Source of the DNA: a virus
Taxonomy: Duplodnaviria; Caudoviricetes
Strand: one strand, 5' to 3'
DNA length: 43,520 nt
Virus record (IMG/VR): IMGVR_UViG_3300037483_000044
Coordinates: 1 to 43,520 of that record
In this document: in pieces, positions 139-43,520 of the stretch
How the letters are laid out: each line of letters opens with the position of its first letter
Position numbering within the stretch: position 1 is the stretch's first letter
Position numbers and translations under genes: made by a program
Notes under the pieces: model-generated
What the model saw: the letters and a program-made list of their open reading frames with translations, nothing else
The model's database searches: none
Told to the model about the DNA's origin: nothing

Positions 139-252
139 AAACTCTACCGGTTAAGCGAGATGTTGCAATATTACGTAGACACCGTCACATCGGACCCTAG
201 ATTTCCAGACGAGGAAGCAAAACAATACATTCTGAAAGTTAGGTTACTATGA
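1..252 (+). CDS. 3' part of a hypothetical protein spanning the circular junction (~161 aa in total)
   Basis: Open frame RSADYPFEIEEWKK...YILKVRLL ends at TGA 250-252, overlapping the helicase ATG (ATGA). It continues the frame from GTG 43149. Confidence 0.75.
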   Translation, partial: RSADYPFEIEEWKKELAGFSLGDLVAGLQTVQLKDFNDWLEPAGLAKLYRLSEMLQYYVDTVTSDPRFPDEEAKQYILKVRLL

Positions 253-2219
253 GCGTCTTCTTTGATGAAACCACTAACACTGTAGCGGTCGCCCTAACCG
301 ATGCAGTGCAAAAAAGAGACGCGCTTAAAAAGGGAATCACAGACCAAGAAAACCGAATTAAAGAACTCAACACTGAAATAGAGCGGATTAGACGGGAAGC
401 ACAAGAAAACATTACAGCCTTAAGCACAGAGCGCAGTAAAATTGAAGTGGAGATTTTCGACACGCGCAGAGAAATTCGAGCGATCGAAAAGGAAATTTTA
501 GCACTAGAGCAAAAGCTCCGGTTACTTGAAGATGCAGCACGACGTAAAATGGAGTTTCAAGAAAACCAAATTGAATTTGACCGCATTACCGCGGGACTAA
601 GTTGGAGAGAATGGGCTCTCCCGCACCAAATTGATGGCGCACATTGGATGGCAGAATCCAGAAAGAGTATTCTCGCAGACAAGATGGGGTTAGGTAAAAC
701 ACTAACAGCCCTTATTGCTTGTGACATGCTTAAGGCACAGCGAATTTTAATTGTAGCACCATCTGATGTGGTAAAGAACTTTGAGAAAGAAGTAAGGCGT
801 TGGGCGCCGCATAGGAAAACAGTATTAAGTATGTACAAAATGTCTAAGGGTGAGCGCAATGCTGCATTTGAGTTGTTGCGACTTATTCCCGAAAACAATC
901 TTGTCATACTAATTAACTACGAAGCATGGCGTAAAGATAGTTCACTGATTAACAAACTAATTGAGCTAAGATTTGACACAATCATTTTAGATGAAGCACA
1001 CAACGTAAAGAACACCACTACCTTTGCTTACAAGGGCGTAGAGAAGATTACATTCGCAGAGAATTGTTGTCCTTGGTGCGGTGCGGCGATTATTAGCTAC
1101 AGCGTAGATAGATACAACCATTGTATGCGCTGTAGCGACGACAGTTGTGGGTGGGATACCAGAGATAACGTCGAGTGGGATGCAGGAGATAGGCGCAGTA
1201 TTAAAAATGTATTCCCAATGACAGGCACAACAATTCTCAATAGACCAGATGAACTCTATCCACTACTGCATCTTATTCTACCAGAAATCTTCTATGACCT
1301 AGAAGTATTCCGTGTCTTCTACTGCACTCAGAACAAGTACAATGGCAAGTGGGAATTCGCACCAGGTGCAATGGATAAACTAGCACAGCATCTTAAGGGC
1401 AGGTATGTAATGCGTACCCGCCATGATGCTAACGTCAAGATTCCTAAGCAAGACATCATTGTCCACGAAATTCCGCTACAGGAAGTACAAGAGTTTTATC
1501 CTGGCCAATTCAAGATCATGCAGCAACTCTCTAAGTATGCGCAAATTGTACTGGATTCTGGTAAGAAGTTAACACCAATGGCTGCTATTACGGTTATTCT
1601 ACGTAAGAGACAAGCTAATGTACTTCCGGCTGGAATTGAACTGAAAGATGGAGACGGCAATGTCATATTCTCAGTTGGGGATGAGACAAGCGAATCTGTC
1701 AAAATTGATAAGGCGTTTGAGTTACTTACAGAAATTACAGCAGATGGGCTCACTTTCGGTGAGAGGGCGGTTGTCTTTTCACAATTTAAGGCCCCGCTCC
1801 ATGCCCTATCTGAAAGACTTAACGACGCCGGTATTAGTTCGATCGTATTTGATGGCAGCACACCGGAAAAGATCAGGGAAGAAATTAAGGCGGACTTCGA
1901 CCGCGCAGTAGACGGAGAAAGAAAATGGCAAGTAGTTCTTGCAAATTACAAGGTTGGAGGAGTAGGACTTAACTTTACAGAAGCAACACACATTATCGCT
2001 CTAGATGAAGAATGGAATCCAGGTAAGAACGAACAAGCTTGGGCTCGAATTGACAGAGTAGGTCAGACCGAAGAAACCACCGTACATATTCTCCGTATTA
2101 CGAGTACAGTAGATACTTGGATGGCTGATCTAAACAATAATAAGCGTCAAATTATTCAAGGATTTGAAGTAACCGCTACAGGGATTCTTGAAGCGATGCG
2201 TAATGGAGAGATGATGTGA
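249..2219 (+). CDS. SNF2-family (SF2) DNA helicase/ATPase with N-terminal coiled coil
   Basis: Motif I LADKMGLGKT, motif II ILDEAH, VFSQF, GGVGLNFT, motif VI QAWARIDRVGQ. Confidence 0.92.
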   Translation: MSVFFDETTNTVAVALTDAVQKRDALKKGITDQENRIKELNTEIERIRREAQENITALSTERSKIEVEIFDTRREIRAIEKEILALEQKLRLLEDAARRKMEFQENQIEFDRITAGLSWREWALPHQIDGAHWMAESRKSILADKMGLGKTLTALIACDMLKAQRILIVAPSDVVKNFEKEVRRWAPHRKTVLSMYKMSKGERNAAFELLRLIPENNLVILINYEAWRKDSSLINKLIELRFDTIILDEAHNVKNTTTFAYKGVEKITFAENCCPWCGAAIISYSVDRYNHCMRCSDDSCGWDTRDNVEWDAGDRRSIKNVFPMTGTTILNRPDELYPLLHLILPEIFYDLEVFRVFYCTQNKYNGKWEFAPGAMDKLAQHLKGRYVMRTRHDANVKIPKQDIIVHEIPLQEVQEFYPGQFKIMQQLSKYAQIVLDSGKKLTPMAAITVILRKRQANVLPAGIELKDGDGNVIFSVGDETSESVKIDKAFELLTEITADGLTFGERAVVFSQFKAPLHALSERLNDAGISSIVFDGSTPEKIREEIKADFDRAVDGERKWQVVLANYKVGGVGLNFTEATHIIALDEEWNPGKNEQAWARIDRVGQTEETTVHILRITSTVDTWMADLNNNKRQIIQGFEVTATGILEAMRNGEMM

Positions 2220-3109: not shown

Positions 3110-3412
3110 ATGATGTGCGATCGCTGCGACAAGGCTAAGACTGAGTACAACAAAGCCGTGGCTGAGTACGTCAAGGCTAAGACTGAGTACAACAAGACTG
3201 ATGCTGAGTACGACAAAGCCGTGTCTAGGTACGTCAAGGCTGATGCTGAGTACGACAAGGCTAAGACTGAGTACGACAAAGCCGTGGCTGAATACTATAA
3301 GCTTGATGCTGAGTACAACAAGGCTGATGCTGAGTACAACAAGGCTGATGCTGAATACGTCAAAGCCGTGGCTGAGTACGACAAAGCCGTGTCTAGGTGC
3401 TCGATTACGTAG
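3110..3412 (+). CDS. Heptad-repeat coiled-coil protein with N-terminal CxxC
   Basis: GAGGAG RBS; about 12 tandem 21-nt units encode EY(N/D/V)KA(VA/KT/DA). Confidence 0.8.
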   Translation: MMCDRCDKAKTEYNKAVAEYVKAKTEYNKTDAEYDKAVSRYVKADAEYDKAKTEYDKAVAEYYKLDAEYNKADAEYNKADAEYVKAVAEYDKAVSRCSIT

Positions 3413-3419
3413 ATGGTAA

Positions 3420-3492
3420 GCGCCGTTAGCTCAGATGGTAGAGCAGCTGACTTTTAATCAGCGGGTCATAGGTTCGAGCCCTATACGGCGCA
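3420..3492 (+). tRNA. tRNA-Lys(UUU)
   Basis: Acceptor GCGCCGT/ACGGCGC, anticodon arm GCTGA-CTTTTAA-TCAGC, GGTTCGAGCC T-arm; no encoded CCA. Confidence 0.95.
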
Positions 3493-3521
3493 CGAATTCA
3501 AAGTCTAGTCAAGGAGTCAAA

Positions 3522-3674
3522 ATGTGTGACAAGTGTCTTGAAACTGGCGCAGAGCTGAACGACACTACGTCTCGATTCGAGACTGCTAGGATCGCGTTCA
3601 ACGAGGCTGTTAATCAACAGCATGAGGCTAGGCTTGCATATGATGCAGCTAAGGCCAAGTGCCAAGACAAGTAA
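3522..3674 (+). CDS. Small coiled-coil protein MCDKC...KCQDK (50 aa)
   Basis: AAGGAG RBS before ATG 3522. The longer track ORF (3435) runs through the tRNA, so the start was moved. Confidence 0.75.
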   Translation: MCDKCLETGAELNDTTSRFETARIAFNEAVNQQHEARLAYDAAKAKCQDK

Positions 3675-4210
3675 CCGGAGAATAGCGAGCGTCCCGAAAT
3701 CCTGACCGGGCAGGTCTGTTATAAAGCGAGTGCCACCCAACTCGAAGAGATGTCAGCAGGCGGTTAAGAGCTCCCTGTATACGAAAGGCAAAACTCTTCG
3801 ACGAGTGTGACAGACGAGAACTTAAGCCCGGTGCGGCAGATAAGTTGACACTAGCCTTTAAAGATAGGTTGTTCCGTTAGTGGGAGCATTAATGTCGGTC
3901 TATCTAGTGTACGCCGTGCCTATTACTTATCTGCGTGAAGTCTCCCAACTATTATAGAGGTAGTTGCCAGTCGCCTCACGGGATGACAACTGGTATAAGT
4001 ATTACTCTTCGGTGTTGTTACACTGACAACTATCGGAGTTTTTGTAAGGGGCAGGCGATATGGAGTAGTGACCAGGATCGCCCTGTAGCGCAGATTAGGT
4101 ATCTAGCGGACAGACAAAAAGAGAGCCGGTTTATTAACTAGCCCGGTTGAAGTCTGGTGAAAAGCCAGAGCCTCTCATAACAAAAAGCCCCCATTAATAA
4201 CCCGATGTCT
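3675..4210 (+). ncRNA. Large structured non-coding RNA, ROOL-like candidate
   Basis: Nested stems 3705-3711/3826-3832, 3714-3722/3807-3815, 3742-3749/3794-3801, 3836-3845/3925-3934 and 3848-3854/3904-3910, plus TCTGG-TGAAAAG-CCAGA. It lies between two tRNAs with no RBS-led ORF. The family call rests on remembered motifs only. Confidence 0.7.
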
Positions 4211-4223
4211 AACAAGGAGTCCA

Positions 4224-4319
4224 ATGATGGGTGATGTCTTTAGTATTAAAACTTCAAGCGTATTTCGTGTAATGAAATCTGCGGACTATGGAGAGCAGTT
4301 TGTGAGGGTTCAAATCTAA
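4224..4319 (+). CDS. Tiny hypothetical protein (31 aa)
   Basis: AAGGAGTCCA-ATG leader, almost identical to the leader of the next gene. Confidence 0.45.
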   Translation: MMGDVFSIKTSSVFRVMKSADYGEQFVRVQI

Positions 4320-4345
4320 ATCGTAATAGCTAAAAAGGAGTCCAA

Positions 4346-4699
4346 ATGTCTGTTGCAGCCATGGACGATATGTGGGATGCTCTACAGTGGGTATACGATA
4401 ATAATAAAATTCCTGCGTACTGTAGGAAGTCTTGGAAAAACATGCTGGACTATAAGGACCAAAAAACTACAAATCGAGCATATGAAGATGCCGAATTCAT
4501 TTACAACTCAGAATTCATTTACGACTCAGATGACACTAACGTCGTTCTTATCTACCGTGCTATTAGAGCTGCTTATATTGCCTTCCATTACTTGTTAGAC
4601 GATACACTGAATCTTAATGCTACTGTCACAGCCCTTGTAAAGGAGCGTACTATGTATGCAATAACTCAATGTGTTAAATTGGGCTACCCAAAATCCTAG
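4346..4699 (+). CDS. Hypothetical protein
   Basis: AAGGAG RBS; 117-aa ORF. Confidence 0.75.
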   Translation: MSVAAMDDMWDALQWVYDNNKIPAYCRKSWKNMLDYKDQKTTNRAYEDAEFIYNSEFIYDSDDTNVVLIYRAIRAAYIAFHYLLDDTLNLNATVTALVKERTMYAITQCVKLGYPKS

Positions 4700-4708
4700 T
4701 AATGCTAT

Positions 4709-4781
4709 TCCCTCATAGCTCAATTGGCAGAGTGAGCGGCTGTTAACCGCTAAGTTGTAGGTTCGAGTCCTACTGAGGGAG
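4709..4781 (+). tRNA. tRNA-Asn(GUU)
   Basis: Acceptor TCCCTCA/TGAGGGA, anticodon arm AGCGG-CTGTTAA-CCGCT, GGTTCGAGTCC T-arm, discriminator G. Confidence 0.95.
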
Positions 4782-4950
4782 CATGTGTGAATCCACTTGT
4801 CCTTACCATCACTATGTGAAGAAATCTAATGGAGAATGGAGATGTATCCATTGTGGAAAAAGGACTATGGGATAGGATAAGGGATTGGTATAGACCAGAG
4901 GAACTTAATCCTGAATTAGATTATGGGGATGGTTACGATGAGGATGAATA

Positions 4951-11017: not shown

Positions 11018-11530
11018 ATGTTTGAAGATAGCCTTTTCGGTGGACTTGATATTGCGTCTGCTTCTGATGATCCCTTTGCTCTACCTGTTGATAGTTACTA
11101 CTGCACTATTACCGGAGCAGTAGTAGCACCTACTAAAAATAATCCAGATAAGTACGGTATTACTTACACTTATACTGTTACAGATGGTTCTTATAGAGGA
11201 CAGTCAATTTCAGATTGGAAAGAAGTACCTTCGCCTGTATCAAAAATGCGTGAGGAAAATGGCTCTGATTGGGAACCAGACAAGGATTATCTACAAAAGC
11301 TTTCTTTCTTAAAGCAGCGTAGTATTTCTTTTGGTATCCCAGAAGACCGTATTAATGAAGTTAAAGCTAGTGATCTACTTGGACTGGATATCGTTGTAAC
11401 ACTCGGAAAGTCTAAATCAACCAAGCCCGATCGTGCAGGTAAAACTGTTATCATTAATATTCATCCGGCAAGTGAAGGAGAAGTTGCCAGTCTTAATGTA
11501 GGCACTTCTTCTGGTAATCCTTTCGCATAA
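11018..11530 (+). CDS. Putative ssDNA-binding protein (DUF669-like)
   Basis: LPVDSYYCTI..., VTDGSYRGQ, DLLG and an aromatic C-terminus (NPFA); follows the Sak4-like gene. Confidence 0.7.
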   Translation: MFEDSLFGGLDIASASDDPFALPVDSYYCTITGAVVAPTKNNPDKYGITYTYTVTDGSYRGQSISDWKEVPSPVSKMREENGSDWEPDKDYLQKLSFLKQRSISFGIPEDRINEVKASDLLGLDIVVTLGKSKSTKPDRAGKTVIINIHPASEGEVASLNVGTSSGNPFA

Positions 11531-11540
11531 AGATATGAAA

Positions 11541-11668
11541 CGGGCCCGGCAAGAGAGCCTCGGATATAGACCAACTCTTGGGTAATAGTCAGCATTGCGC
11601 GGCAGCCGGGGAGTGGGAGGGCGTTCATCTTTCTGATGGAGATGAGAAATTGACTGGTACCCCACATT
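11541..11668 (+). ncRNA. Structured intergenic element, copy 2 (expanded)
   Basis: Same conserved blocks as 5951-6020 with longer internal hairpins (CAAGAG/CTCTTG, TCATCTT/GAGATGA). Confidence 0.55.
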
Positions 11669-11673
11669 AAAAA

Positions 11674-11744
11674 CCCGCTACAGGGGATAAACCTGATACG
11701 TAAACAGGCTATCTTAAATCACTAAAATAGGGCCCTGTAGCGGG
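11674..11744. repeat. Stem-loop closed by a 12-bp perfect inverted repeat made of two genome-wide motif copies
   Basis: CCCGCTACAGGG (11674-11685) / CCCTGTAGCGGG (11733-11744), with an internal CCTG/CAGG hairpin. Confidence 0.85.
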
Positions 11745-11747
11745 CTT

Positions 11748-11821
11748 GTCGGTATATCCCAATTGGCAGAGGAACTCGACTTAAAATCGAGCCAGTGTGG
11801 GTTCGAGTCCCACTACCGACA
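11748..11821 (+). tRNA. tRNA-Leu(UAA), short variable arm
   Basis: Acceptor GTCGGTA/TACCGAC, anticodon arm CTCGA-CTTAAAA-TCGAG, GGTTCGAGTCC T-arm. Confidence 0.93.
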
Positions 11822-11822
11822 C

Positions 11823-11896
11823 GGGCTATTAGCTCAGCAGGTTAGAGCACTTGTCTTATAAACAAGCGGTCTCGGGTTCAAGTCCCGAATAGCCCA
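11823..11896 (+). tRNA. tRNA-Ile(UAU)
   Basis: Acceptor GGGCTAT/ATAGCCC (Ile-type), anticodon arm CTTGT-CTTATAA-ACAAG, GGTTCAAGTCC T-arm. Confidence 0.93.
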
Positions 11897-11924
11897 CTAA
11901 TATTTAAGATAGGAAGGAGGGTGA

Positions 11925-31981: not shown

Positions 31982-33190
31982 TTAACCCTCAGTTATATCT
32001 TCAATTCTACCATGCGTATTGCGACGGTGAGTACCAAACTCACAATACTTATACATAGTTGCAGCATAAGCATCGAAAGTTCCTGCAGAAGTAACTACTC
32101 TATTCCACATACTACCGTCACGATCCATGAAGGACCAATCAGCTTCTTGATATATCTTCATCTCACCTTCATTAAGGTAGGTGAGAGTGTTAGGCGGCGC
32201 CATTGTATCAACCACAACAGGTATATCACCTGTATCCGTAGTAAATGCAAGACCACTAAAACCGCCTGTAAACTCTTGGGTATTAGTGAAACGACGTTGC
32301 GAAGTAAGAAGATTGAAATAGGCACGACGAACGCCAAGGTTAGCAAAGATAACTGAAACTTTACCACCTCGAAGACGGATTGCATCCGCCATATTTATCA
32401 TCATACCTTCAGAAATGGCACGGTTAGTGCCACCATTTGCATCAATATTAGAAGTCCACTGTGCATCTGTAATGTTATACAGAGCACCAGAACTTTGTAT
32501 AATAACACCAAGTCCTGTAATTTCTCGCTGAGTAGCTAAAGTTGCAAGACCAACAGAACCCATGCGAACAACAATATCACCAACAGCAGTAGTAATGTTA
32601 GCACCAGAAATAGTCATACCTGTTGCAGTAATAGCAGTAACAGTACGACCTGTAGCTTTCTGGGTTACACCATCAGCAGTATATACATCTACTATCATAC
32701 CCATCTGTAACCAATAATTATGCTTGATTACAAAGGTTGTTGAAGTAACAACAGTAGTAATAGTTGCAACTGCACCTTGACCACTACCATAGACTTGACG
32801 GTTGAAGTCAACTGCAAGGTCACGCTTAAGTCCCTGCATTTCAAGATCAAGTGTTGACACAAAAGATTGAACATTAGTTTTAGCTAGTTCAAAAGTTTGT
32901 CCCGTTAACTGAACAGAGCCATAAAGGTACTTAAGAGATACACGTGCTGCAAGAGTTGTCTGATTACCTGCGGCAGGTAGAGCCTCTAGTTCAGTACGTG
33001 CACCAATACCAGGGTTACGTGCAGTATGAATAGGGAAAACTACATATTTACCACCAGCATCAGCAGCTACACCCTCAGAAGTACGAGTAATGCGCTTAAC
33101 AGTAGTCATTTCATCGTTAAGCTGCATTCGTAATCTTGATTCATAGATTTCTTTAGTAATAGCTGAGATGGTCGTCATTGTGGCGCCCAT
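31982..33190 (-). CDS. Major capsid protein
   Basis: 402 aa between scaffold and terminator; GGKYVVFPIH, YLYGSVQLTGQ, EMQGL..DL and RRNTHGRIEDI. Confidence 0.85.
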   Translation of the reverse strand: MGATMTTISAITKEIYESRLRMQLNDEMTTVKRITRTSEGVAADAGGKYVVFPIHTARNPGIGARTELEALPAAGNQTTLAARVSLKYLYGSVQLTGQTFELAKTNVQSFVSTLDLEMQGLKRDLAVDFNRQVYGSGQGAVATITTVVTSTTFVIKHNYWLQMGMIVDVYTADGVTQKATGRTVTAITATGMTISGANITTAVGDIVVRMGSVGLATLATQREITGLGVIIQSSGALYNITDAQWTSNIDANGGTNRAISEGMMINMADAIRLRGGKVSVIFANLGVRRAYFNLLTSQRRFTNTQEFTGGFSGLAFTTDTGDIPVVVDTMAPPNTLTYLNEGEMKIYQEADWSFMDRDGSMWNRVVTSAGTFDAYAATMYKYCEFGTHRRNTHGRIEDITEG

Positions 33191-39711: not shown

Positions 39712-40354
39712 CTAATGCGGTGTTGGCCAACATTTGTACCTCAGCACCAATCTTAGCTAAAGTGCTTGGGTCTGTCACGTGCTTTGTAATTATCTCTACT
39801 ATCCTAGATAATACTGCCATTACGTCCATGGCATTCTTACTATTGGGATCCCACCTCTGTGTTATCTCATAGTAAAACTTAATTGCGTTCATATCGCCTT
39901 TTTCAGCTGTCTGTAGCAATGCTTGCTGAATCATTGGCGCGTGTTCTTCCAGCTGGTCCGCCGATAAAGAAGCTACCATGGATCGAAACTCTGGATTCTT
40001 CATCCACGCTGTCCATGTTACGTAACTGTACCCAAGATTCTTTAATTTCTTGGCTAAACCCCCCGCTACAGTGGGGTCTAACACGTGTGCTAAAACGTAC
40101 ATTTGTTCTGCACTAAGTCTGTTCGGTCTAATCCACGGTACCCCACGGGACAAAATTCCATGCTTAAAATCCGCGTGGTCCAGTATTTTAGCTAATTGAA
40201 GTGGATTTTCAAACATATCTCTGTGCTCATTAAATATCTCGTCTATCTTAGGGATTCTTCTCTTTTTAAGATAGAACATATATACATAATTAACTAGGTC
40301 TGTTACACATAATGCTAAATCTTTTTTCGAGGTCTGCAATTGAAGGCACCCCAC
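39653..40354 (-). CDS. Putative terminase small subunit / HTH protein (start uncertain)
   Basis: LKNLGYSYVTWTAWMKNPEF HTH and A..GDMNAIKFY pattern; upstream of terL. Confidence 0.55.
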   Translation of the reverse strand: MGCLQLQTSKKDLALCVTDLVNYVYMFYLKKRRIPKIDEIFNEHRDMFENPLQLAKILDHADFKHGILSRGVPWIRPNRLSAEQMYVLAHVLDPTVAGGLAKKLKNLGYSYVTWTAWMKNPEFRSMVASLSADQLEEHAPMIQQALLQTAEKGDMNAIKFYYEITQRWDPNSKNAMDVMAVLSRIVEIITKHVTDPSTLAKIGAEVQMLANTALGGNNGNTNNQVKVIQASEH

Positions 40355-40781
40355 AATCTAATAGTGCTTCTTTGAGCAAGAACGGCAATGCAGTATTGGT
40401 AGATAGTTCATATGCTTGTATGATACTCTGTTGTATCTTCACTGTCCTGCAGTATTCTATTAAGCTATTTCCAATTACTACTTGACGATAACACTTATGT
40501 GGGTGTTCTGGACAGGAGAAATAGTTACGCAAAAAGTATTCAGTTCGCGGAAAGAAAAGAGCCGCTACAGGGGCTCGTTCATTGCGAATCCAGACATGAT
40601 ATGTATCTAACAGAGAAATATCTGATAAGTAAATAGAAAGAGTGGTTTCTAATTTAGGAGATGGAGTTGAGTAAAGTCCTTGTTCAACGCGAAGAACGTA
40701 GTTCCGCGACAGGGATGATTCTTTAGCTAATCGAGCTTGAGTTAGACCAGCTTGGAGTCTCAGTTTCTTGTATGGGTTCAT
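40290..40781 (-). CDS. XRE-family HTH transcriptional regulator
   Basis: LRLQAGLTQARLAKESSLSRNYVLRVEQG, plus a second degenerate HTH in the C-terminal half. Confidence 0.8.
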   Translation of the reverse strand: MNPYKKLRLQAGLTQARLAKESSLSRNYVLRVEQGLYSTPSPKLETTLSIYLSDISLLDTYHVWIRNERAPVAALFFPRTEYFLRNYFSCPEHPHKCYRQVVIGNSLIEYCRTVKIQQSIIQAYELSTNTALPFLLKEALLDCGVPSIADLEKRFSIMCNRPS

Positions 40782-40833: not shown

Positions 40834-40907
40834 AGTATACTAACTTAATTTTTTATAGAAATAAACTAAGTATACTAACTTAATTTTTTATAGAAATAAA
40901 CTAAGTA
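40834..40907. repeat. AT-rich 35-bp tandem direct repeat x2
   Basis: AGTATACTAACTTAATTTTTTATAGAAATAAACTA at 40834-40868 and 40869-40903. Confidence 0.9.
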
Positions 40908-40953
40908 CCTATCTATGGAAACAACTGCGCGTTTCAAGCCTGTACAACATGAC

Positions 40954-40981
40954 TTGACATTATGCGCACTCGGAGTAAGAT
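40954..40981 (+). promoter_or_regulatory. SigA-type early promoter (cassette 1)
   Basis: TTGACA-16 nt-TAAGAT, preceded by TGGAAACAACTGC. Confidence 0.65.
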
Positions 40982-41028
40982 TCTCCTTGTAAGTGAAAGC
41001 CCAGCCCTCAGAAGATACGGAGCTACTC

Positions 41029-41406
41029 ATGATTACCAAGGCACGCGCGCAGGAACTTCACGCCAAGGGTCACGAAGATCTGCGCAGGAACTTCTACGAT
41101 CCCAAGTCGTTCGGTGAACTCTGCAAGAAAATGGTCACAACTCTCACTTCCGATGAGTACACCATGTGGGGAGGCGGAGCCGTCTGTGAGTCCGCGGAAC
41201 ACTCGGTGATGTTCCAGATGGTCGTCACGATCACTCTCACCTCGGTCTACCAGAATGTGAAGGGCGAGGAACTCCCGGAGTTCTCCGGGGATGTGGTGGA
41301 GGACGCCCCCGATCCGGACGCTCAGCCAGGCACTGACGACGTTCTGCTGGCACAGCTGCGCGAGATCGTCGGAGACGACTTCATCCTGGGAGATGACACG
41401 GACTAG
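41029..41406 (+). CDS. GC-rich early hypothetical protein with acidic tail
   Basis: GGAG RBS before ATG 41029; high GC3 codon usage. Confidence 0.8.
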   Translation: MITKARAQELHAKGHEDLRRNFYDPKSFGELCKKMVTTLTSDEYTMWGGGAVCESAEHSVMFQMVVTITLTSVYQNVKGEELPEFSGDVVEDAPDPDAQPGTDDVLLAQLREIVGDDFILGDDTD

Positions 41407-41419
41407 TTCTGAGGGCTAG

Positions 41420-41457
41420 GCAGGAAATCCCCTGGATCTCTCCAGGGGATTTCCTGT
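41420..41457 (+). terminator. Long hairpin terminator
   Basis: GCAGGAAATCCCCTGGA-TCTC-TCCAGGGGATTTCCTGT. Confidence 0.8.
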
Positions 41458-41603
41458 GTCCCGAAGGCCTGCCTGGAAACAACTGCCGTCACAATGCCGT
41501 CAAGCCGCGCACAATGCCTATCCCTGGACTTGCATTAACACTCTATCTGTGATTGACTATGTCTAAGCAAGCCACCCACTACCCAGACCAAGAGGAGTAC
41601 ACC

Positions 41604-42341
41604 GTGTCTGACACGACCGACTACACCGTCCCCATGCGAGAGCTTGTCTCTCAACTCATTCGGGAGAACAACGACCGGGCCGACCGGCTTCGTTCCGCCG
41701 GTAATTCTGCTGCACTTCTCGCAGAAGTCCGCGATGAGAAGGAAACCGAGGATGTCAACATCCTGGACTACCGAGAGATGCGAGAGAAGGCTCTCGCAGA
41801 AGTTCTTTCCTGGGAGAAGGATATCGAGGAATACATTCGGAATGCTGGACTCGTCGATGCCCCGACTGTGGATGTCGAGAAGGAAACCGCAGCTTGGAAG
41901 GCACAGCACTCAACTGTCAAGAACATGATGGCTGTTCTGACTTCTCTCGCGGGAGATGACGGAACGCGGGAACTTCCCGAGATCAAGGGGATTCCTGGCA
42001 AGTCCGGAACTACTAGCGGAAATAGTGGAGGTACTGGTATCACTCGTCCGCGATTCCAGAGCATCCGCTACAGCGTGGCAGGTTCCGACAAGTGGACTGA
42101 GGTTTTCCAAGTCGATGAGAAGGATGATGGTACCAGGGAACAGAAAACCTCTCTCACCATTCTGGCGCTCGCACTCAACAAAACATATAAATCGAATGTT
42201 TCGGCATCCGATCTACACGGTCCTCTCTTCGAGGAAGCCGGAACCAAGGATCTGAAATCTCTCAAGGGAAAGCCTGTCGCGTTCGCTTTCTCCGTGGGAG
42301 ATGTCAATGTCATCGTGGAGGCCACCCCACGTGTTGACTAA
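41604..42341 (+). CDS. GC-rich early hypothetical protein (coiled coil, Gly linker, C-terminal domain)
   Basis: GAGGAG RBS before GTG 41604; high GC3 codon usage. Confidence 0.8.
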   Translation: MSDTTDYTVPMRELVSQLIRENNDRADRLRSAGNSAALLAEVRDEKETEDVNILDYREMREKALAEVLSWEKDIEEYIRNAGLVDAPTVDVEKETAAWKAQHSTVKNMMAVLTSLAGDDGTRELPEIKGIPGKSGTTSGNSGGTGITRPRFQSIRYSVAGSDKWTEVFQVDEKDDGTREQKTSLTILALALNKTYKSNVSASDLHGPLFEEAGTKDLKSLKGKPVAFAFSVGDVNVIVEATPRVD

Positions 42342-42346
42342 TCCCT

Positions 42347-42390
42347 AGGAAATATCCCCTAGTCTTTCATTAGACTAGGGGATATTTTCT
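42347..42390 (+). terminator. Long hairpin terminator
   Basis: AGGAAATATCCCCTAGTCT-TTCATT-AGACTAGGGGATATTTTCT. Confidence 0.85.
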
Positions 42391-42470
42391 TGCCTAAAAA
42401 TCTTAGTCCACCGCATGGAAACAATGCCGGCGATATGTCCGTTGTATACCATATGTCCGAAATCTGCCTA

Positions 42471-42500
42471 TTGACAGCTTACCCCCACATCTGCTACTAT
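42471..42500 (+). promoter_or_regulatory. SigA-type promoter (cassette 3)
   Basis: TTGACA-18 nt-TACTAT with an extended TG; TGGAAACAATGCC upstream. Confidence 0.7.
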
Positions 42501-42665
42501 TGCATTAGTTCGAGCGGCACCGTGTAATGACATGTGGTTAGTGAATATAACTTTGGCATGGCTTTAGGACTAATATAACCAACATATTAAAACTGTAGAG
42601 TTCTGTTCCGCTACAGGGAATCTGTAGCCATCACGTTTTAATAGGCCATAACCAGAGGAGTGAGA

Positions 42666-42821
42666 ATGTCCAAGCCACGTGTTTATAAGGAAATCCTGAC
42701 CTATAACGATCTCTGGCCTCGTTGGGTTGGAGTTAATCAATATGGTCAGATGGGTTTCTTCAACTGCTGGAAGGATGCACTTAATTATGCCGTCGAAATA
42801 ACCATCTTTCTTAAACGTTGA
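42666..42821 (+). CDS. Small hypothetical protein (51 aa)
   Basis: GAGGAG RBS; MSKPRVYKEILTYNDLWPRW...FNCWKDALNYA. Confidence 0.7.
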   Translation: MSKPRVYKEILTYNDLWPRWVGVNQYGQMGFFNCWKDALNYAVEITIFLKR

Positions 42822-42984
42822 GGGACTAACTAAAAATCATTTTGTGTATACCACATTGATTTCTAAAAAGTCCTTATTTACCTTATGCGTTTTATGTCCC
42901 AGATGTCCGATATGTCCAATTCTAGAAGATGAGAGCTTGTTACGGGACGGAGTCCCTCCACTAGCTCTCATCTTTTCGGTTTCG

Positions 42985-43107
42985 CGTTATCACAGAAGTA
43001 ACGTTGGATCATGCTCTGACCAGGCACGTTACCCATGCAGTAACGCTCATCTCTCAATGATCATGGTAATGACCTCCAAAAAGATCAACGTTACTCTCAC
43101 AGTAACG
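42985..43107. promoter_or_regulatory. Three dyad sites CGTTAY-N7-GTAACG
   Basis: 42985-43003, 43027-43045 and 43089-43107. Confidence 0.7.
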
Positions 43108-43148
43108 AACGGACATTCAGGACATCTCTCACATATAAGACAGTAGGT

Positions 43149-43520
43149 GTGTTTTATTTGGTTATCGTTGAACCTAAAGAATTATTCGATTTCTTCTCCA
43201 CTGTAGCGCATGGGTTGTTCTCCTACGAAGCAGAAGAATCATTGTCACTACCAAGGAACTCTTTACGTCGTCACTTAGCTAAACCAGGGTTTAGGCAACT
43301 ACCAGACAAAAGGTACTGTCTAAACACAGATTCCTTTGAGCAATTTTGTGTACTTCAAGGGTACGCTGTCGTTAAACGTGTTCGTAGCGCGGATTACCCA
43401 TTTGAAATCGAGGAATGGAAAAAGGAATTAGCTGGGTTCTCCCTTGGAGACCTAGTTGCTGGGTTGCAAACTGTCCAACTTAAGGATTTTAACGACTGGC
43501 TAGAACCGACGGGGTTAGCT
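43149..43520 (+). CDS. 5' part of the junction-spanning hypothetical protein (start uncertain)
   Basis: Open frame VFYLVIVEPKELFDFF... continues into 1-252. Confidence 0.7.
   Translation, partial: MFYLVIVEPKELFDFFSTVAHGLFSYEAEESLSLPRNSLRRHLAKPGFRQLPDKRYCLNTDSFEQFCVLQGYAVVKRVRSADYPFEIEEWKKELAGFSLGDLVAGLQTVQLKDFNDWLEPTGLA
43383..43520. repeat. Terminal overlap (right copy)
   Basis: Matches 1-138 with one mismatch. Confidence 0.95.

Follow-up and report, generated by a model that had tools for sequence, protein, structure and literature searches.

Host-like codon usage in two cassette genes of a low-GC actinophage relative and its probable link to a phage-borne tRNA-Leu(UAA)

Two explanations are debated for why phages carry tRNA genes, namely codon compensation and escape from nucleases of the host. 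Codon classes in T4 have reportedly been described by Cowe and Sharp. Compensation by tRNA genes has been described in the cyanomyoviruses Syn9, S-RSM4 and S-PM2, which are AT-rich phages of GC-richer hosts (PMC3152331), and a tRNA set with a deletion phenotype has been described in T4 (PMC4810235). Early and late codon classes have been reported in phages (PMC5683454), including the Shigella phage Sf14 (PMC12482277). In the bldA system of Streptomyces, the codon UUA is exceptionally rare and the functional tRNA is withheld early (PMC10732093). Host-ward selection in a low-GC actinophage is already in print for Patience (PMC4324244). The Streptomyces BE phages Coruscant and Mildred21 have GC-rich terminal repeats (PMC8612146, PMC7650747), and the Arthrobacter phage Jasmine (cluster AV) carries an Lsr2-like gene inside its terminal repeat (PMC5513430), which is 1330 bp long. 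A literature search, mainly in the main texts of openly available papers, found no earlier report of the pattern described here for this phage family.

The window, i.e. the whole stretch of DNA that was analysed, is a complete phage genome of 43,520 bases with a 138-base overlap between its ends and a GC content of 39.3%. The replication arm occupies the + strand, beginning at 41029, passing the window start and reaching 17658, and the structural arm occupies the - strand from 40781 to 17795. The best annotated matches of the terminase are those of the Arthrobacter phages Brad, Adat and Jasmine (43%), the Cellulosimicrobium phage DS1 (42%) and the Microbacterium phage Shocker (39%), and by sequence comparison the window is a relative of the actinobacterial podovirus Jasmine. 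The endolysin has 20 matches, comprising 18 Streptomyces and 2 Brevibacterium phage records, with the best at approximately 30% identity to Streptomyces phages. Judged from the nearest isolates, the host is probably GC-rich and actinobacterial. A second related phage contig of 38.7 kb, in which short portal and terminase parts match, is present in the same run (X1).

Two cassette genes on the + strand open the replication arm: gene 1 (41029..41406, 125 aa) and gene 2 (41604..42341, 245 aa). Their codon bias is best explained by codon compensation with a timing constraint, to which a probability of roughly two in three is assigned. Host-type promoters in a probable terminal repeat would make the cassette genes the first to be read, at a stage when the only tRNAs at hand would be those of the host, and these genes would therefore keep host-like codons without TTA or ATA. 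The phage tRNA-Leu(UAA) and tRNA-Ile(UAU) would then lift the cost of these codons, allowing later genes to drift to TTA and ATA. The result would be a graded rate effect arising from AT mutation pressure and relaxed selection, and not a switch. We infer both the expression order and the cost that TTA would carry in the absence of the phage tRNA.

A preliminary description of this DNA had reported that the two genes lack TTA and ATA, contain few AAA codons and are GC-richer than the rest of the genome, and each of these statements is confirmed. Gene 1 (125 codons) contains TTA at 0 of 10 Leu, ATA at 0 of 4 Ile and AAA at 1 of 6 Lys positions, with a GC content of 0.58 and a GC3 of 0.74, and the corresponding values for gene 2 (245 codons) are 0/20, 0/10, 4/17, 0.54 and 0.58. 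Pooled over 370 codons, the counts are 0/30, 0/14 and 5/23, whereas the other 54 genes, a set that leaves out the capsid gene, have TTA 404/1012 (40%), ATA 287/799 (36%), AAA 533/752 (71%) and a GC3 of 0.24 (Fisher p = 3e-7, 0.002 and 2e-6 for TTA, ATA and AAA, respectively). The avoidance of TTA and ATA is therefore real, but it is not special to these codons. Codons for which the phage has no tRNA are also avoided, including GTA (0/31 compared with 47% elsewhere, p = 4e-9), AGA (0/19), TTT (0/10), CAT (0/5) and CTA (1/30), so the bias is mostly one of general host-like coding. A general UA-dinucleotide (nuclease) effect was considered and rejected. TA at codon positions 2-3 occurs once compared with 13.6 expected; across codon junctions it occurs 10 times vs 21 expected in the window, but 297 times vs 278 in 12 pooled orthologues. 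Since the junctions of the pooled orthologues are not depleted, the effect lies mainly at the codon level, with some residual in the window.

Replication and structural genes had been described as heavy users of TTA and ATA, which holds for the overall shares but not for every gene. The SNF2-type helicase (249..2219, + strand; TTA 9/55, ATA 3/55), the first large gene past the cassettes, belongs to an intermediate codon class and is the most depleted gene of the window by p-value (TTA plus ATA 12 vs 41.7 expected). Depletion is also found in the gene at 11018 (1 vs 8.3) and in the major capsid protein gene (31982..33190, - strand; TTA 4/25, ATA 6/26, GC3 0.24; 10 vs 19.3), which served as the control for an assumed high late expression. 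The HTH gene, the first of the divergent structural arm (40290..40781, - strand), has TTA at 6 of 22 Leu positions. Along the 26 genes of the + arm, GC3 drops with gene order (rho -0.67) and TTA plus ATA climbs (rho +0.61). TTA use in the replication genes (65/168) does not differ from that in the virion genes (132/322), and there is no step at the tRNA-Leu gene, with 53/147 (36%) upstream and 60/161 downstream. The gene crossing the window ends, two places past the cassettes, has TTA at 7 of 23 Leu positions, and TTA is the commonest Leu codon of this phage.

Genes 1 and 2 are each flanked, all on the + strand, by an exact TGGAAACAA box with a sigma-70-like site on the 5' side and by a long hairpin on the 3' side. 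In cassette 1, the box (40916-40924) and the promoter-like site TTGACA-16-TAAGAT (40954-40981; similar layout in the relatives G001-G004) precede gene 1, which is followed by a perfect 16-bp hairpin and likely terminator (41421..41456; -33 kcal/mol for 41415-41465). Cassette 2 contains a box (41474-41482), a promoter-like site TTGCAT-17-TTGACT with a non-canonical -10 (41530-41558) and, past gene 2, a 19-bp hairpin that is again a likely terminator (42347..42390; -30 kcal/mol for 42342-42398). At the place of the cassette 2 promoter, G001 has TTGCAT-17-TTTACT and G002-G004 have TTGAC(A/T)-17-TA(G/A)TGT. In cassette 3, a third box (42416-42424) and the promoter-like site TTGACA-18-TACTAT (42471-42500) start the remaining replication arm. 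Taken alone, the promoter scan (4 sites vs 3.6) and the box scan (14 one-mismatch boxes vs 13.5) are at chance level; all three exact TGGAAACAA boxes fall in the cassettes, and the layout recurs in G001-G004.

The stretch 40878..43446 has a raised depth of 25.1 compared with 14.4 for its 35.7-kb neighbour, i.e. 1.74-fold (run X1, possibly the source sample; a single value for each contig), and the cassettes probably lie in a direct terminal repeat of approximately 2 kb inside this stretch. In Jasmine, the slot of gene 2 is occupied by the Lsr2-like gene. A gene in a terminal repeat would enter the cell first, whichever end leads. No RNA polymerase was recognised among the 38 window proteins scanned, so the cassettes are likely transcribed by the host polymerase. 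The 1691-aa protein was scanned with DxDGD-type patterns as a candidate virion RNA polymerase and rejected, since two such patterns gave zero matches. Because the cassettes have a host-promoter-type layout within a likely terminal repeat, genes 1 and 2 are likely read first. The earlier proposal that the first-expressed genes are tuned to the host tRNA pool finds partial support in the host-like codons, the cassette anatomy and the bias shared with relatives. The timing itself is predicted from the anatomy and the depth step.

Two further repeats are present in this region. An inverted repeat of 15 bp with one mismatch (40999-41013/41407-41421) would pair the 5' and 3' UTRs of gene 1 around the whole open reading frame, and this pairing is present in the predicted fold. 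It was rejected as a family trait, as the pairing extends over 15 bp in gene 1 and only 6-8 bp in gene 2 and eight orthologues. An exact 35-bp tandem duplicate (40834-40903), AT-rich and partly palindromic, lies between the divergent arms and adjoins the depth step; it possibly lies near a genome end or represents an origin or operator.

Gene 1 is an orphan that contains no TTA, ATA, GTA or AGA. The search for homologues returned only the self match, with no PHROG family, no Pfam match at the cut-off and none among the fetched loci. Its slot in relatives is occupied by unrelated genes, which are mostly TTA-free in G001-G004 and G010 (TTA 1/46 Leu in 7 open reading frames). Gene 2 is a conserved family gene. 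The family comprises 210 clusters at 50% identity, with orthologues in 13 of the 31 genomes examined (the window counted), and the orthologue adjoins the divergent HTH gene in all genomes in which the latter was detected (10 of 13). All 13 orthologues rank first or second in GC3 among open reading frames of at least 150 codons, and combined they contain two TTA and no ATA codons. At E 0.001, an orthologue was absent from 27 of the 34 contigs screened, including 8 of the 11 near-complete ones, and these belong mostly to a distant clade without the tRNA. A tblastn search of gene 2 against annotated phages gave no match, although a profile search finds the DS1 orthologue.

The alternative offered in the preliminary description, recent horizontal acquisition from a GC-rich donor, is extremely unlikely as an account of the bias. 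It would suit gene 1, whose GC3 of 0.74, orphan status and slot filled by unrelated genes in relatives make acquisition possible for that gene, and a block transfer has been proposed for the GC-richer terminal repeat of the Streptomyces BE phages (PMC8612146). For gene 2, recent acquisition is ruled against by orthologues that share both slot and bias, being poor in TTA and ATA in 12 relatives as the preliminary description had suggested checking, and by a GC3 that shifts with the genome from 0.42 to 0.74. The finding named beforehand as telling against early tuning, close GC-rich homologues elsewhere together with absence from relatives, was not made for gene 2: a scan of bacterial genomes found no full-length homologue and one partial match of 42 residues among 101 candidate stretches.

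The model of the gene 2 product (129-sequence alignment, mean pLDDT 89, pTM 0.47) contains four N-terminal helices, a flexible linker in which P149-R150 is nearly invariant, and an alpha/beta C-domain. Residues 47-128 resemble the Lsr2-like protein gp58 of Jasmine (probability 66%, E 6e-5), the C-terminal end of which is annotated as an Lsr2-type domain. The Lsr2 C-terminal DNA-binding domain carries an RGR motif. No Pfam match placing gene 2 in Lsr2 was found at E 0.05, the Lsr2 C-terminal motif pattern had 0 matches among the stored gene 2 family proteins, and by these tests the product is not an Lsr2 member. Foldseek found nothing in PDB at E 0.001, whether with the complete model or with the C-domain by itself, and the VIA structure search gave no Z of at least 5, the best (Z 4.3, rmsd 3.1, 65 aligned residues) being an unrelated lectin. 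A viral structure library gave one match at E 0.001, a 253-aa protein equal in length to the DS1 orthologue, and ESM Atlas gave no usable match for gene 1 or gene 2. The modelled protein most likely oligomerises, binds DNA and carries an exchanged C-domain, and it would act on the incoming AT-rich genome; this putative role is drawn from its position, N-domain and basic motif.

Four tRNA genes are present on the + strand of the window: tRNA-Lys(UUU) (3420..3493), tRNA-Asn(GUU) (4709..4782), tRNA-Leu(UAA) (11748..11822; 75 nt with a short variable arm), which lies a short way 5' of the primase-helicase gene, and tRNA-Ile(UAU) (11823..11897), which directly abuts the tRNA-Leu gene. The phage tRNAs match abundant codons, with TTA, ATA and AAA accounting for 40%, 36% and 71% of the codons of their amino acids, respectively; tRNA-Asn(GUU) has no simple fit, as AAC makes up only 22% of Asn codons. 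The UAU anticodon in tRNA-Ile is normally avoided by bacteria. The tRNA-Ile(UAU) of G002 differs from the window copy except in the anticodon arm, and Coruscant also carries one. The tRNA-Leu(UAA) gene was found in 11 of the 31 genomes and lies just upstream of the primase gene in all 11. Forms of 74-75 nt and of 83-92 nt, unlike in sequence, are scattered among sister branches; in the sister genome G001, an 83-nt long-arm tRNA-Leu of unlike sequence occupies the same site as in the window. Since the two unlike forms are mixed over the tree, repeated replacement of the gene with retention of the anticodon is likely.

Long non-coding stretches lie at 11530-11748, before tRNA-Leu, and at 3674-4346, between tRNA-Lys and the next clear gene. 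Directly 5' of tRNA-Lys, 3110-3412 encodes a 100-aa low-complexity repeat protein with AEYDKA/TEYNKA-like units (GC3 0.64, AAA 5/16). The word CTGTAGCG occurs 36 times in the window compared with approximately one expected, on either strand, within genes as well as in intergenic DNA, and often with CC before it. Its sites include 280, 1130, 2543, 11676, 11735, 40563 and 42609, of which 11676 and 11735 are two opposed copies in the non-coding stretch before tRNA-Leu. Over-represented words in relatives are CTGTAGCG in G001, G002 and G003, CTGTGGCG in G004, CTGTGGGA in Jasmine, CTGTCGCT in DS1 and CTGTAAAG in Shocker (45 vs 0.1 expected); G011 and G030 are rich in TGGTGGTG. The dispersed word is possibly a primase recognition site.

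In the 11 carriers of tRNA-Leu(UAA), TTA rises from 1/185 Leu codons (0.5%) in the cassette to 26/474 (5.5%) in the helicase gene, 328/1614 (20%) in four replication genes and 1019/3231 (32%) in six virion genes, while CTA over the same four steps is 5, 17, 19 and 11%. With three fragments that lack the tRNA site included, TTA is lower in cassette than in late genes in 12 of 12 genomes, in helicase than in middle genes in 9 of 9, and in middle than in late genes in 11 of 12. A binomial model of 131 genes that adjusts for genome, GC3 and the use of other rare codons gives an order effect on TTA of +0.79 (quasi-p 2e-14), or +0.77 without the cassette, and of -0.24 on CTA. The relative records include several fragments, and their open reading frames were called by a simple script. 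In the 16 genomes without the tRNA, which are mostly one clade probably infecting other hosts, so that pooled p-values overstate independence, virion-gene TTA is 267/5264 (5%). Helicase TTA is lower than late TTA in only 1 of 12 of them, where the helicase matches may not be true orthologues. Capsid TTA is 1/417 in 15 of these genomes, Shocker being left out as it has no capsid match. The tRNA-free clade (G007, G009, G011, G030, G033 and kin) favours CTA (188/417 capsid Leu codons in 15 genomes), and this strong preference suggests different hosts.

Among genomes of matched GC3, the 6 with the tRNA have a median TTA share of 0.24 and the 10 without it one of 0.06. The genome G027, which is nested among carriers and has its tRNA site covered but no tRNA there, has 4% TTA, and Jasmine, also without tRNA-Leu(UAA), has 2%. 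The window and G002, which are the two carriers of tRNA-Ile(UAU), are the only genomes with more than 30% ATA; the fragment G015, the record of which does not cover the tRNA site, has 19-21%. The claim that later genes depend on the phage tRNA-Leu(UAA) and tRNA-Ile(UAU) is thus supported insofar as TTA tracks the presence of tRNA-Leu(UAA), but most of the cassette bias concerns codons for which there is no phage tRNA. Jasmine and DS1 have a similar bias in the cassette slot without tRNA-Leu(UAA), and the cassette codons alone therefore say nothing about the tRNA.

The phage tRNAs may instead stand in for host tRNAs lost to defence nucleases or shut-off, with codon use following, as has been proposed for mycobacteriophages (PMC10264068) and for Sf14 (PMC12482277). 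The recurrence of tRNA-Asn(GUU), tRNA-Lys(UUU) and tRNA-Gln(UUG) in the phage family is in line with this proposal, and so is the minority share of AAC among the Asn codons of the window. One to four tRNAs are, however, too few for a whole pool, and a single constant tRNA matches a single codon with a specific gradient; as the explanation of the bias, replacement is very unlikely. It and compensation with a timing constraint are not exclusive and can both hold.

It is unlikely that expression level is the sole cause, with the cassette genes being the most highly expressed and keeping optimal host codons at any time. The capsid and SSB-like genes are likewise depleted of TTA, ATA and AGA, so expression level contributes, and codon selection in highly expressed genes has been described in the low-GC mycobacteriophage Patience (PMC4324244). 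In 12 genomes (DS1 left out), TTA makes up 2/230 Leu codons in the gene 2 orthologue compared with 43/356 in the capsid gene and is lower in 12 of 12, whereas CTA is 5% vs 6% and ACA, TCA, CCA and CAA are about equal. Among 29 A/T-ending codons tested, TTA has the lowest cassette/capsid ratio. With TTA at approximately one-tenth of its capsid level and other rare codons similar, abundance contributes but is insufficient alone. Moreover, capsid TTA moves from 43/356 with the tRNA to 1/417 without it, while the cassette gene stays near zero throughout; the scaffold genes have 41% TTA but 6.5% CTA; and the helicase, which is unlikely to be abundant, is TTA-poor yet not CTA-poor. The late TTA:CTA ratio of approximately 2.8 would roughly correspond to AT-biased mutation under relaxed selection, which belongs to compensation with a timing constraint.

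The preliminary description had also proposed a tRNA-gated programme analogous to bldA control, in which later mRNAs would stay untranslated until the phage tRNA builds up, thereby ordering the infection. TTA positions of the bldA type show a start-proximal bias, and hosts would keep their own UUA reader, which would count against such a gate. The early-to-late gradient is specific to TTA, all 11 carriers have the tRNA at one and the same site, and 2 of 11 genes show some grouping of TTA into aligned columns (p = 0.014 for capsid and 0.006 for Sak), but this mild clustering can come from shared descent. TTA is neither rare nor confined to a few genes, making up 40% of Leu codons (404/1012); the first 30 codons are not enriched in it (25/78 vs 305/752, p = 0.18); no column is invariant, the maximum being 6 of 13 genomes; it is already used at 7/23 two genes past the cassettes and at 36% upstream of the tRNA; and Jasmine and DS1 keep the gene order without tRNA-Leu(UAA) or TTA. 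The bldA-like gate is accordingly very unlikely. In a related checkpoint reading, a TTA-free nucleoid-protein-like factor with a new C-domain would be made first from host promoters in the terminal repeat, expression of the replication arm would then supply tRNA-Leu(UAA), and virion proteins, with approximately one-third of Leu on TTA, would appear in quantity only once the tRNA accumulates, the family having kept the checkpoint while swapping the tRNA gene several times. This reading is speculative and improbable.

The codon pattern represents no new regulatory system. The family is a clean natural experiment, with one tRNA, one codon, carriers and non-carriers, CTA as a control and a four-step gradient along the likely programme. 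Like the AT-rich phages that compensate, the window keeps a low GC content and tRNAs for A-ending codons, with Leu(UAA) and Asn(GUU) included. Unlike them, it has a 43-kb podovirus-type genome, the family carries one to four tRNAs, an Ile(UAU) is included, and the link can be followed for individual codons between carriers and non-carriers of one family. As in phages with early and late codon classes, early genes fit the host pool and late genes a phage or altered pool; here, in contrast, the timing is deduced from anatomy, and the gradient has four steps and is TTA-specific against CTA. The bldA system shares the identical codon and tRNA and early-acting genes without TTA, but TTA is evenly spread in the window, where no other Leu codon is as common, and the tRNA is phage-borne.

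Jasmine and DS1 share the gene order, a terminase 42-43% identical and, in the gene 2 slot, the GC3-richest or joint-richest gene. They differ in having no tRNA-Leu(UAA) and almost no TTA, and the Jasmine protein ends in an Lsr2 DNA-binding domain whereas gene 2 has another C-domain. The Streptomyces BE phages are likewise low-GC actinophages with host-like terminal-repeat genes, among which is an Lsr2-like gene. In Coruscant (48% GC), GC3 is 0.73 in 22 terminal-repeat genes compared with 0.43-0.49 elsewhere. Its terminal-repeat genes shun all A-ending codons counted, with CTA 4/161, GTA 7/170 and AGA 2/147, compared with 138/553, 176/651 and 170/423 in virion genes. Unlike the window, Coruscant avoids TTA throughout (6/1088 Leu codons in 36 genes for replication and the virion) despite a tRNA-Leu(UAA), so the early-gene effect may be general and the licence to use TTA is not automatic. 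The BE terminal-repeat genes have been published as a block transfer (PMC8612146), and the Coruscant pattern fits early-gene adaptation as well. This raises the possibility that the GC-rich genes in the terminal repeats of low-GC actinophages, which have been published as horizontal block transfers, are instead early genes held to host codons. Compensation, early and late codon classes and host-ward selection have all been published before, and the present family is an unusually clean instance of them.
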